This document shows, piece after piece, positions 34,816 to 38,915 of a stretch of 64,000 bases of DNA. The position numbers were made by a program, and so were the translations under genes. The notes under the pieces are model-generated. The model was not told where the DNA came from. It saw nothing but the letters and a program-made list of their open reading frames with translations, and ran no database searches. Every line of letters begins with the position of its first letter. The stretch's first letter is position 1. The DNA is from a virus. The stretch covers positions 9 to 64,008 of IMG/VR virus record IMGVR_UViG_3300010389_000013, one strand, 5' to 3'.

Positions 34816-34823
34816 TATTTATA
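34816..34823 (-). promoter_or_regulatory. T4-type late promoter TATAAATA
   Basis: Perfect consensus about 40 nt upstream of the giant fiber gene. Confidence 0.85.
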
Positions 34824-34843
34824 CAACTCTAATGGGCGGTTTA

Positions 34844-34917
34844 CGGGACTGATGGGACTTGAACCCACGGCACCCTGCGTGACAGGCAGGTACTCTAACC
34901 AACTGAGCTACAGCCCC
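34844..34917 (-). tRNA. trnD: tRNA-Asp(GUC)
   Basis: GGGGCTGTAGCTCAGTTGG...CCTGC-CT-GTC-AC-GCAGG...GGTTCAAGTCCC; no encoded CCA. Confidence 0.95.
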
Positions 34918-34920
34918 AAA

Positions 34921-34992
34921 CTCCCAAGGCAGGATTTGAACCTGCGACCGAGCGATTAACAGTCGCCTGCTCTGCCGCTGAGCTACTTGGGA
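34921..34992 (-). tRNA. trnN: tRNA-Asn(GUU)
   Basis: TCCCAAG acceptor stem, anticodon arm GGCGA-CT-GTT-AA-TCGCT, T-loop GTTCAAAT. Confidence 0.95.
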
Positions 34993-35017
34993 ATGTTCGC
35001 TATTTGCGAATAGCGAA

Positions 35018-35089
35018 TGGAGAATAGGGGATTTGAACCCCTAACCCCCTGCTTGCAAAGCAGGTGCTCTACCGTTGAGCTAATTCCCC
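35018..35089 (-). tRNA. trnA: tRNA-Ala(UGC)
   Basis: GGGGAAT/ATTCTCC-A stem with G3:U70; anticodon TGC. Confidence 0.95.
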
Positions 35090-35093
35090 GAAA

Positions 35094-35368
35094 GGGGCAT
35101 TTCACCCCAAAGAGTCTGTTGGATTAGAAGGTAGACTTAACCCCCATCTCCCCTTATGGGTCAGGCAACAGCAGCTGCTTGACGGGAGAATGCAACGATG
35201 TTATTCGCTGCGGTGTCAGATGTGTTTGCATCTATTTGGTGCTTATCCAAGCAGGTTTCAGTCACGCTCCTTATACCCCGTCAAAACCATGGCACCCCCT
35301 CGCATGGAGGTGAGGGGAATTGAACCCCTGTCCGAAATGTAGGTGGCGTCACCTATTCTCTCAAAAGA
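35094..35368 (-). ncRNA. ssrA: circularly permuted (two-piece) tmRNA, cyanobacterial type
   Basis: T-arm GGGGTTCAATTCCCC and acceptor 3' strand CACCTCC-A (35312-35305); 5-nt spacer TGCGA; 5' strand GGGGGTG (35299-35293, G3:U70) then CCATGGTTTTGACGGGG; tag frame ending NNIVAFSRQAAAVA-stop (35161); terminal hairpin 35094-35108. Confidence 0.93.
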
Positions 35369-35373
35369 GAGAA

Positions 35374-35447
35374 AGCCACAAGTCGGACTTGAACCGACGA
35401 CCTACGGTTTACAAAACCGTTGCTCTATCCAGCTGAGCTATAGTGGC
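35374..35447 (-). tRNA. trnT: tRNA-Thr(UGU)
   Basis: GCCACTA acceptor stem, arm ACGGT-TT-TGT-AA-ACCGT, GGTTCAAGTCC. Confidence 0.95.
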
Positions 35448-35904
35448 GTATAAACTCTAGGTGTCCCCATTGAGAACCCCAGATTTTTTGGTTTGTCTTC
35501 GGGTCAATCCCCGAGTCCATAACCTTGTAACTATTGTAACCTAAGATGATGTCGTTTGTCAAGTACGTTGTGACGCCTTTCCAATTGACCCAGCAGTTAC
35601 AATCTGTATTGTGACCGTGGTACTCGTTTCCCACCGACTCAAATATTGTATCACATCCCTCTTTGTATGTCAAACCATCTAGAGTGAAATTTTTGACGCG
35701 AAATTTTTTCCCTTCTGGGCAAATACGCATCCGAAATTCCCTGTATGGATTGTTCTGGGAATGATAGTATGCTTGCTTACCATAGAACCAATCTTCATCA
35801 ATTCTCTGGTGGGTGATGATTATCCTAGCATATCGCGTAGGATGCTTCATTGCTTGTAAACGATTATCAAATGTGCCTTCTAGATAATCATGAAACTGAG
35901 TCAT
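35425..35904 (-). CDS. cpeT: CpcT/CpeT-like bilin lyase, copy A
   Basis: LEGTFDNRLQA..HP..YA.I...H...NPYR...DSG.D....IWGS. Confidence 0.85.
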   Translation of the reverse strand: MTQFHDYLEGTFDNRLQAMKHPTRYARIIITHQRIDEDWFYGKQAYYHSQNNPYREFRMRICPEGKKFRVKNFTLDGLTYKEGCDTIFESVGNEYHGHNTDCNCWVNWKGVTTYLTNDIILGYNSYKVMDSGIDPKTNQKIWGSQWGHLEFIRHYSSAG

Positions 35905-36169
35905 CAGGCATTAGGTCAGGATTACAAACTTCAACTTGAAACAAGAGTGGGTGACATTCTTCAGAGATTAGATAGTCAGATGCCCTATACATGTACTCCA
36001 TTGTGAATTCTGGATTCAAAGCACATTCGGACAAGATCCACTTATCTTGCTTTTGATCATCTTCAAGAGTATCAAAAGTAAATGGCATTCCTGCAATGAA
36101 GTACATTTTCACTGGAACGTTATCCACAAAGCAATGCATTGTTGAGATTTCGTATCCAGCAAACGCCAT
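35888..36169 (-). CDS. conserved cyanophage hypothetical protein
   Basis: 93-aa ORF in the pebS-cpeT operon; start uncertain. Confidence 0.7.
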   Translation of the reverse strand: MAFAGYEISTMHCFVDNVPVKMYFIAGMPFTFDTLEDDQKQDKWILSECALNPEFTMEYMYRASDYLISEECHPLLFQVEVCNPDLMPDDSVS

Positions 36170-36192
36170 CGGTTTATTGCAGGTTGTTGCAG

Positions 36193-36831
36193 TTATTTAT
36201 CAGCATATGAAAACAAAAAGTTGTTAACGTAATCTTCTGAAAAGTCTTTGCCAAACTTACTTGCCATATATCCAGCAACAGGGTCTAACTCCAGCATATA
36301 CTTGTCAAAATCAGCATAATAAGAGGTATCATGCTCGGTGGGTCTAGCAAATGCCAGCAACTCTTCATATGCTCTCACATATCGCTTGAAATTATTCAAG
36401 TGATTTGGGATCTCATCACGTGTACATTTGCGAACATAAATGTACCGAGAGAAGTGATTTCCTGCCTCAAAGAATCTGATATCTTTGTCAGTATTGTCAA
36501 TCATGTCACTCAGCAAGTATAGAATCACTGGATGATTGAAATCTTTATGTGGGGTAGGATGCTGGAAGTCAAAAACAAGAATAACTTTCTTCTCAAAGAA
36601 ACACATCAAGTCCATGCCGAAGCAAGGAAGATCTTCACCTGTCTTTGGATAGACAATATTGTTATAGATGTCTGTCTCTCCACATCTAATAATTGTCTCT
36701 CGTGACTTTAATACATGACTTCCAGTGTAGAGTTTTGACTCCAGCACTGCATCTTTAGACACTGAATGAGACGACTCATGCTCTTCCAGTTTCAGGTGAT
36801 CTACAAGAAAATCTCTATACTCTTTCCACAT
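36193..36831 (-). CDS. pebS: phycoerythrobilin synthase (ferredoxin-dependent bilin reductase)
   Basis: DIYN..YPKTG.DLPCFGMDL, VFDFQHP, RFFE.GNHFS, ELDPV.GYM..KFG; both catalytic-type Asp residues present; start MWKEY. Confidence 0.92.
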   Translation of the reverse strand: MWKEYRDFLVDHLKLEEHESSHSVSKDAVLESKLYTGSHVLKSRETIIRCGETDIYNNIVYPKTGEDLPCFGMDLMCFFEKKVILVFDFQHPTPHKDFNHPVILYLLSDMIDNTDKDIRFFEAGNHFSRYIYVRKCTRDEIPNHLNNFKRYVRAYEELLAFARPTEHDTSYYADFDKYMLELDPVAGYMASKFGKDFSEDYVNNFLFSYADK

Positions 36832-36846
36832 GTTTGTACTCAATAA

Positions 36847-36930
36847 TAGGAGTGGGGGGACTTGAACCCCCACGAGTTAATTCTCAGCGGATTTTAAGTC
36901 CGATACGTCTACCGATTCCGTCACACTCCC
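36847..36930 (-). tRNA. trnL: tRNA-Leu(UAA)
   Basis: GGGAGTGTGACGGAATCGGTAGAC...TCGGA-CT-TAA-AA-TCCGC, long variable arm, GGTTCAAGTCC. Confidence 0.95.
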
Positions 36931-37397
36931 AAGGGTTTGTCTGTTTTCTGGAATTCATATATGACATTGCTGCCCCATACTACTTTTCCATCTCGCCATC
37001 CTTGGTCTCTACTCTTATAGTAGGAACCGTTGAACTTCACGGTAGATTTTAGCATACCGCCGTTGATAATGCAAGCATCAGTTTTCACTCTGCCATCATA
37101 ATGATCTCCAGCATCAAAGAACATCATATCACAGCAGTGATTGTGTTCTTTCCAGTCTGGTTCCCAGTTCTGAACTATGATAACTCCTTGCTGCTCAAAG
37201 ACTTTATGCCATTTTTGCCTGTAAGGATTATCTTCACCTATGTAATGATACCACTGCTTTGATTTAAACAAATTGTCACCGATACGCTCCCACTTGAGTT
37301 TGATGTGGGCATATCTGGCAGGATCTCTTGCTGCTTGAAACCAATTGTCGTAGAACCCTTCAAGTTTATCACAAAATTCTTTTACCACAACCAACAA
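36921..37397 (-). CDS. cpeT: CpcT/CpeT-like bilin lyase, copy B
   Basis: LEGFYDNWFQAARDPARYAHI...NPYRQ...CDM.F...D.G...WGS. Confidence 0.8.
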   Translation of the reverse strand: MLVVVKEFCDKLEGFYDNWFQAARDPARYAHIKLKWERIGDNLFKSKQWYHYIGEDNPYRQKWHKVFEQQGVIIVQNWEPDWKEHNHCCDMMFFDAGDHYDGRVKTDACIINGGMLKSTVKFNGSYYKSRDQGWRDGKVVWGSNVIYEFQKTDKPLGV

Positions 37398-38876: not shown

Positions 38877-38915
38877 TAGTATAGTACAAAAAAAGAGGGG
38901 TGTCAAGCACCCCTC
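38877..38915 (-). terminator. intrinsic terminator overlapping a sigma70 promoter
   Basis: Stem GAGGGGTG/CACCCCTC plus U7; TTGACA starts in the loop with TATACT 17 nt downstream. Confidence 0.85.

Follow-up and report, generated by a model that had tools for sequence, protein, structure and literature searches.

The window analysed here, a 64,000-nucleotide (nt) stretch of IMG/VR record IMGVR_UViG_3300010389_000013, is a 64-kb contig of a T4-like cyanomyovirus (the whole record has 64,151 bases). Its minus strand carries two genes of the CpeT/CpcT family, cpeT-A and cpeT-B, whose stop codons lie inside the transfer RNA (tRNA) genes that follow them, and a transfer-messenger RNA (tmRNA) gene is located in the same island. 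The double overlap was confirmed to be real and not a chance coincidence, yet it is not special to this genome and represents a recurrent junction type in the tRNA islands of cyanomyoviruses. We propose that both overlaps are probably the local form of a general habit of compaction in these islands, which is tolerated and does not constitute a designed timer. The original prediction made for this locus had suggested that tRNA maturation may be coupled to the tagging and timing of CpeT through the phage tmRNA, and had named genome compaction as a fallback. Compaction is the better fit, since the overlap occurs without a tmRNA, the junction is labile and other genes end in the same way.

Structure of the two overlaps

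The stop codon of cpeT-A, TAG (35427-35425), is located 23 nt into the tRNA-Thr(UGU) gene, and the last seven codons of cpeT-A together with the stop are tRNA-Thr sequence. The stop codon of cpeT-B, TGA (36923-36921), is located 10 nt into the tRNA-Leu(UAA) gene when the 5′ end given by Rfam is used, or 11 nt when that of ARAGORN is used. The first 10 nt of this tRNA (11 by ARAGORN) encode the final codons of cpeT-B and its stop (U8-G9-A10). Both stop positions had been part of the original prediction and were borne out by ARAGORN, Rfam, the open reading frames (ORFs) and Pfam. The overlaps are of the type that has been collected for bacteria (PMC4131195): the coding sequence (CDS) lies upstream on the same strand, the stop falls within the mature tRNA, and the protein belongs to a recognised family.

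Judged by the Pfam gathering score (cut-off for PF06206, 21 bits), cpeT-A and cpeT-B are members of the CpeT/CpcT family of T-type bilin lyases, with lyase activity as a predicted function. CpeT-A also matches the CpcT structure 4o4o in PDB (E 4.2e-13) and the phage CpeT structure 5hi8 (E 8.2e-9). The conserved CpeT fold finishes where the tRNA starts: the Pfam domain extends to residue 153 of 159 and the 4o4o match to residue 156. In the CpeT alignment conservation stops after the block WGxLxFxR; the 3-12 residues beyond it are unconserved and are translated tRNA. Both tRNAs appear to be functional. They score well above the Rfam tRNA threshold of 29 bits under the covariance model, and compensatory changes among 11 relatives preserve the pairing in three stems of tRNA-Thr (acceptor, anticodon and T).

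The tRNA genes are efficient in closing reading frames. The tRNA-Thr of the window closes all three frames, at 10 nt (U8-A9-G10), at 23 nt (UAG of the D-loop) and at 39 nt (UAA of the anticodon loop), and its tRNA-Leu closes the three frames at 11, 48 and 55 nt. All three frames are closed in 47 of the 76 tRNA-Thr(UGU) genes found at the collected loci. Two of these loci, L008 and L022, carry a 1-nt deletion in the D-loop of the tRNA that removes the in-frame UAG, and the cpeT stop is shifted there from 23 to 38 nt. This indicates that the tail of CpeT follows the tRNA passively, and not the reverse.

Distribution of the overlap and of the tmRNA

An alignment-based scan of IMG/VR and isolate genomes yielded 82 loci of the cpeT-A type, 68 of them with distinct proteins. 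The cpeT stop is located inside a tRNA, mostly tRNA-Thr and sometimes tRNA-Asp, in 52 of the 82 loci. It is found 1-12 nt ahead of the tRNA in 18 loci, and in the remaining 12 it is farther off or no tRNA is present in the fetched stretch. The depth of the overlap is 6-11 nt in 28 loci, 23 nt in 12 and 37-39 nt in another 12. These three classes correspond to the three reading frames of tRNA-Thr. At least 22 changes of overlap class are required on the CpeT tree, and the stop moves between the inside and the outside of the tRNA at least 7 times. Judged by this comparison, the cpeT/tRNA junction is evolutionarily labile.

The tmRNA-bearing loci form a single clade of the CpeT tree. Among the collected loci, searched with ARAGORN and an nhmmer profile, the tmRNA is confined to this clade, which is the window's own and comprises 15 distinct loci. 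The copy-B overlap varies within it. The stop of copy B is inside tRNA-Leu in the window, L009, L010, L013 and L015-L017; it lies 1-2 nt ahead of a tRNA(CAT) in L008, L014 and L023, and in L011 and L019-L022 the nearest tRNA downstream is 172 or 818 nt away.

The original prediction had called for a comparison of cpeT/tRNA overlaps with the presence of ssrA across cyanophages, and the two turned out not to be linked. The overlap is present in the complete genomes of S-RSM4, S-H9-1 and Sf-CH1b, in which a whole-genome Rfam search returned no RF01851 match, and also at about 40 metagenomic loci without a tmRNA. Homologues of the tmRNA were found in Sf-FS3, S-CAM1, S-CAM3 and S-SSM7, and two of these genomes, Sf-FS3 and S-SSM7, have no cpeT. 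S-CAM3 has a cpeT stop 39 nt into tRNA-Thr and its tmRNA about 33 kb away. In Sf-FS3, tRNA-Thr is followed by the tmRNA without any cpeT, which implies that the tmRNA belongs to the tRNA array and not to cpeT.

Overlaps of this kind are not restricted to cpeT. An ORF of at least 80 amino acids (aa) ends inside 10 of the 134 leading tRNAs that are not adjacent to cpeT, mostly 9-11 nt in, as compared with 56 of the 80 cpeT-adjacent tRNAs. The other genes ending inside tRNAs include those for 2OG-Fe(II) oxygenases and HNH endonucleases. Genes of other families end 9-11 nt into tRNA-Ala, -Asp, -Thr or -Pro at L013:4311-4850, L048:2905-3525, L035:4049-4459 and L005:3756-4115. Several of these genes are insertions between cpeT and tRNA-Thr, and they reuse the same U8A9G10 stop.

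The phage tmRNA

The tmRNA gene of the window is of the circularly permuted, two-piece cyanobacterial type. It directly follows tRNA-Thr and ends 4 nt ahead of tRNA-Ala. The presence of a tmRNA beside the cpeT-A/tRNA-Thr junction had been proposed before, and the gene proved to be real: its match to RF01851 is full-length, spanning model positions 1-288, and the cut-offs are 70 bits for RF01851 and 47 bits for RF04321. The tag frame, ending in ...ANNIVAFSRQAAAVA and a stop, aligns to the consensus of the family.

In two relatives of the window a tRNA-Tyr(GUA) gene fills the spacer of the permuted tmRNA (L008:3603-3686 and L022:4091-4173). It is flanked on one side by the acceptor piece, with the 3′ end ..CACCTCCAT, and on the other by the coding piece, with the 5′ end GGGGGTGCC... 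The same spacer is only about 5 nt long in the window (~35302-35298). Excision of tRNA-Tyr would part the two tmRNA pieces in L008 and L022.

Promoter-like sites and transcription

Sigma-70-like sites matching the consensus at 11 or more of 12 positions were found 11 times in the window, all on the minus (coding) strand, while 1.5 are expected over both strands from shuffled sequence. Nine of the 11 are located 20-410 nt ahead of the next minus-strand ORF. The remaining two, P1 and P2, lie inside cpeT-A, where nothing other than the RNA array follows over a distance of more than 700 nt. The -10 hexamer of P2 ends 85 nt ahead of tRNA-Thr. P2 is matched at 11-12 of 12 positions, in the same place, in all 15 loci of the tmRNA clade, and no comparable site was found in the 55 other cpeT loci. 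The codons that make up P2 are fixed while nearby synonymous sites vary (Leu TTG in 11 of 11, Thr ACA in nine and ACG in two, Tyr TAT in 10 of 11, Asn AAT in 11 of 11). This conservation is suggestive and not decisive, AT-rich codons being favoured anyway. Thus, tRNA-Thr, the tmRNA and the tRNAs that follow probably have their own early promoter, P2, in the 3′ part of cpeT-A. P1 was set aside as a conserved promoter, since none but the four nearest relatives retain its -35 hexamer, and since its -10 hexamer shares positions with the codons of the conserved GCDxIF.

The promoter scan detected no promoter-like site inside cpeT-B or between cpeT-B and tRNA-Leu, from which it follows that tRNA-Leu is probably matured from an mRNA carrying cpeT-B. 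A terminator between the overlapping genes is impossible at either junction. The alternative that the tRNAs come from promoters separate from those of the cpeT genes, which had been raised as a way to refute the coupling, therefore divides: it appears to apply to tRNA-Thr and the tmRNA by virtue of the conserved P2, and not to tRNA-Leu, for which no separate promoter-like site was seen.

An in-frame AUG, Met129 of CpeT-A, is located at 35518-35520 on the minus strand, about 6 nt past the transcription start expected from P2. Among eight aligned CpeT sequences only copy A of the window's clade has Met at this position; the others have Leu or Val, and copy B has Arg. Transcripts from P2 could carry a near-leaderless ORF of 31 codons that also ends inside tRNA-Thr.

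Interpretation of the overlaps

We propose the following course for the origin of the overlaps. The spacer between a protein gene and the next tRNA would have been lost along with the gene's own stop codon. Such a loss would be cheap, for conserved tRNA positions can donate stops a few codons in (U8-A9-G10, the UAG of the D-loop and, in tRNA-Thr(UGU), the UAA of the anticodon loop), and the cost to the protein would be just 3-12 junk residues past the last conserved strand. The cpeT/tRNA-Thr junction appears to be old and widespread; the tmRNA would have joined the tRNA array of one clade later, without being tied to cpeT. In this clade an early promoter within the 3′ part of cpeT-A most likely serves the array of tRNA-Thr, tmRNA and tRNAs on its own. 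A full-length cpeT mRNA must hold the 5′ part of the tRNA, and whenever the whole tRNA is transcribed, RNase P would remove the stop. Ribosomes on the resulting stop-less cpeT fragment would stall and be rescued by the host or the phage tmRNA. Such fragments are most likely to arise at cpeT-B/tRNA-Leu, which has no visible separate promoter. The premise that an RNase P cut would remove the cpeT stop is sound as a prediction, resting on the established biology of RNase P and of trans-translation, and non-stop cpeT mRNA is a plausible by-product of the arrangement.

Several points weigh against compaction as the sole explanation. The cpeT-A stop falls inside tRNA-Thr at all 15 loci of the tmRNA clade. 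P2 and the tmRNA always occur together, but one clade amounts to one evolutionary event. The overlap rate at cpeT (56/80), set against that of other leading tRNAs (10/134) and the ~0.2% of bacteria, means that the tight junction may itself be selected. Moreover, co-transcription, the cutting of cpeT mRNA by RNase P and promoter activity at P2 are predictions.

The coupling suggested by the original prediction amounts to an adaptive circuit: RNase P, in maturing tRNA-Thr and tRNA-Leu, would make the cpeT mRNAs non-stop, and the phage tmRNA would tag CpeT, setting its amount or timing. The circuit would account for two stops inside tRNAs with a tmRNA adjoining and for the constancy of the cpeT-A overlap throughout the tmRNA clade. 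It also gains from the absence of a promoter-like site between cpeT-B and tRNA-Leu in the scan, as maturation of tRNA-Leu should then cut the cpeT-B mRNA. However, overlap and tmRNA dissociate: the overlap is common where no tmRNA is present, three complete genomes being among the cases, and phages without cpeT can have the tmRNA, which is far from cpeT in S-CAM3 and tied to the tRNA array in Sf-FS3. Furthermore, the junction is labile, several members of the clade have lost the copy-B overlap, and tRNA-Thr and the tmRNA are probably transcribed from a separate conserved promoter. A tmRNA is in any case supplied by the host. The circuit is thus very unlikely, and the proposed coupling did not hold up. 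A further suggestion, that one cpeT+tRNA unit was duplicated, would explain why two same-strand cpeT genes are each followed by a tRNA. The CpeT copies are only about 30% identical, though; the tRNAs next to them differ (Leu(UAA) and Thr(UGU)), as do the stop codons and the depths of the overlaps, and copy B in relatives abuts tRNA(CAT) or has no adjacent tRNA at all. A shared duplication history is hardly credible on these grounds and was rejected. The chance that the overlaps are an artefact of mispredicted tRNAs or ORF ends is practically nil. ARAGORN and Rfam do differ by 1 nt at the 5′ end of tRNA-Leu, but tRNA scores of 56-68 bits against a threshold of 29, the compensatory changes in three stems of tRNA-Thr, and two Pfam-positive CpeT ORFs without an earlier in-frame stop led us to reject it.

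The main rival to compaction, broader but still unlikely, holds that the tight cpeT/tRNA junction is selected across these phages, tRNA processing limiting CpeT through non-stop decay and trans-translation, usually by the host tmRNA. The stop is inside the tRNA or at most 12 nt off in 70 of the 82 loci, far above the frequency at other leading tRNAs and in bacteria, and the arfA case, as cited in PMC4131195, provides a precedent for a built-in non-stop mRNA that can regulate a gene. About a quarter of these tight junctions (18/70), however, keep the stop just ahead of the tRNA, and inside and outside positions have interchanged at least 7 times; selection for the loss of the stop would lead one to expect neither. 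Genes inserted at the junction, too, simply adopt the same tRNA stop. Carried further, RNase P would routinely make cpeT mRNA non-stop throughout the cyanomyoviruses and trans-translation would cap CpeT, with the clade of the window reinforcing this through its own tmRNA and a dedicated promoter. We regard this extension as rather improbable; if true, it would be a virus-wide, tRNA-punctuated control of the dose or timing of an auxiliary photosynthesis gene. Within the comparative data nothing indicates that the phage tmRNA serves the rescue of cpeT, or that the loss of the stop is a selected feature, which is consistent with compaction.

Organisation of the locus

The features of the island are listed in Table 1. 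The order on the minus strand is nrdC, a 2OG-Fe(II) oxygenase gene, cpeT-B, tRNA-Leu(UAA), a pebS-like gene, an ORF of 93 aa, cpeT-A, tRNA-Thr(UGU), the permuted tmRNA, tRNA-Ala, tRNA-Asn, tRNA-Asp, a late-promoter motif and a tail-fibre-like ORF of 3,941 aa. The start codon of cpeT-B is uncertain and may be TTG at 37397 or GTG at 37388; its orthologues in related loci share 54-85% identity. The pebS gene is variably present among the members of the tmRNA clade, and so is tRNA(CAT). A Pfam search with the 93-aa ORF gave no match.

Table 1. Features of the cpeT/tRNA island, in order of transcription (window coordinates).
Feature	Position	Strand	Evidence
cpeT copy B (CpeT/CpcT family)	36921..37397	-	ORF list; Pfam PF06206, E 1e-11, 45.5 bits
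tRNA-Leu(UAA)	36847..36930 (ARAGORN 36846-36931)	-	ARAGORN; Rfam RF00005, 55.7 bits; sequence read directly
pebS-like gene (ferredoxin-dependent bilin reductase)	36193..36831	-	Pfam PF05996, E 1.6e-20
Conserved 93-aa ORF	35888..36169	-	ORF list; 43-69% identity in every tmRNA-clade member; overlaps cpeT-A start by 17 nt
cpeT copy A	35425..35904	-	Pfam PF06206, E 9.9e-29, 100.9 bits
Promoter-like site P1 inside cpeT-A (TTGACA, 17-nt spacer, TACAAT, extended-10 TG)	35645..35673	-	Scans; weaker support
Sigma-70-type promoter-like site P2 inside cpeT-A (TTGACA, 18-nt spacer, TACAAT)	35533..35562	-	Scans; conservation
tRNA-Thr(UGU)	35374..35447	-	ARAGORN; Rfam, 68.2 bits
Permuted tmRNA	35094..35390	-	RF01851 cyano_tmRNA, 165.8 bits; RF04321 tmRNA_permuted, 86 bits; ARAGORN tmRNA*
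tRNA-Ala(UGC)	35018-35089	-	ARAGORN; Rfam, array tRNAs 68-75 bits
tRNA-Asn(GUU)	34920-34993	-	ARAGORN; Rfam, array tRNAs 68-75 bits
tRNA-Asp(GUC)	34843-34918	-	ARAGORN; Rfam, array tRNAs 68-75 bits
T4-type late-promoter motif TATAAATA	34816..34823	-	Pattern search; sole copy in window

The ATG of the pebS-like gene is located 15 nt past the 3′ end of tRNA-Leu (spacer 36832-36846, minus strand), and tRNA-Leu thus punctuates the cpeT-B/pebS message at both ends. A Shine-Dalgarno match was not noticed in this 15-nt spacer. The late-promoter motif sits between the RNA array and the 3,941-aa ORF, 32 nt ahead of the start of the latter (34784). Upstream lies a GC-rich hairpin (38895-38915) that has T-runs on both strands and resembles a bidirectional terminator. 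The hairpin shares sequence with the -35 hexamer of a strong promoter-like site at 38906-38878, at which an early operon may begin that continues through nrdC and cpeT-B as far as the RNA array.

Significance

The overlap is real, ordinary in kind and unusually frequent at the cpeT junction, and on present evidence it does not represent a new regulatory mechanism. It is already known from bacteria that CDS/tRNA overlaps can give rise to non-stop mRNA (PMC4131195). Our literature search retrieved no description of a cyanophage cpeT/tRNA overlap, of a tRNA-donated cpeT stop or of a link between tmRNA and cpeT. The cpeT junction shows clearly, and in many natural instances, how protein genes borrow tRNA stop codons; this is the majority state at one conserved junction in a large group of ocean viruses, and the three reading frames of tRNA-Thr account for the three depths of overlap. 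Cyanophage cpeT is also a convenient system for asking whether tRNA processing makes stop-less messages in vivo and what phage tmRNAs are for, with isolates available that have a tmRNA (S-CAM3) or lack one (S-RSM4, Sf-CH1b). For annotation, it follows that a CDS running into a tRNA in these phages does so genuinely and should be left untrimmed, and that the tRNA/tmRNA array of the tmRNA clade probably has a promoter hidden inside cpeT.

Comparison with known systems

The T4-like phages have compact tRNA arrays that are matured by host RNase P from multi-gene precursors, with small protein genes interleaved, such as that for SegB, a nuclease of the homing type. The interleaved genes of the window are instead auxiliary metabolic genes (cpeT and pebS), and a tmRNA is added. 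A further parallel is the tRNA punctuation model of mitochondria, reportedly put forward by Ojala, Montoya and Attardi in 1981. There, too, tRNAs are said to abut or overlap coding regions and to act as processing signals of polycistronic transcripts, with stops that are incomplete or lost at the cut. Mitochondria are said to finish such stops by polyadenylation, whereas in bacteria and phages the outcome would be ribosome stalling and rescue; we know of no such repair of stops by polyadenylation in these.

In Escherichia coli, cleavage of the arfA message by RNase III produces a non-stop mRNA whose product is tmRNA-tagged (Garza-Sanchez et al. 2011, as cited in PMC4131195). The likeness to cpeT is a built-in endonucleolytic cut upstream of the stop that makes a substrate for trans-translation, which for cpeT is a prediction. 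The arfA circuit has a demonstrated logic, in that a back-up rescue factor is made only when tmRNA fails. The comparative pattern at cpeT argues against a dedicated circuit, as the overlap does not depend on the rescue RNA across lineages. Phage-encoded tmRNAs have been reported from mycobacteriophages of the Bxz1 group and from Bacillus phage G (PMC4131195); one is encoded in 133 genomes of isolate phages, a Prochlorococcus phage among them (PMC9004378). These are likewise virus-carried ssrA genes, that of the window being of the two-piece cyanobacterial type (RF01851). Neither report draws a link to CDS/tRNA overlaps, and the present data support none either.

The closest counterparts are the same-strand CDS/t(m)RNA overlaps of bacteria that are predicted to give non-stop mRNA (Hudson, Lau & Williams 2014, PMC4131195). 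Examples are smpB running into ssrA in Carsonella and genes of the ftsW family running into tRNA-Ile(CAT) in Helicobacter; altogether 250 cases with the CDS upstream were found for 115,660 t(m)RNA genes, about 0.2% (PMC4131195). As at cpeT, a Pfam-positive CDS ends in a downstream same-strand t(m)RNA whose maturation should strip the stop. The bacterial cases are lineage-specific and were read as a consequence of genome reduction, an interpretation that they share with the cpeT case. Unlike them, the cpeT junction has the overlap as its majority state (52/82), uses all three frames, is viral and, in one clade, stands beside a virus-encoded tmRNA.

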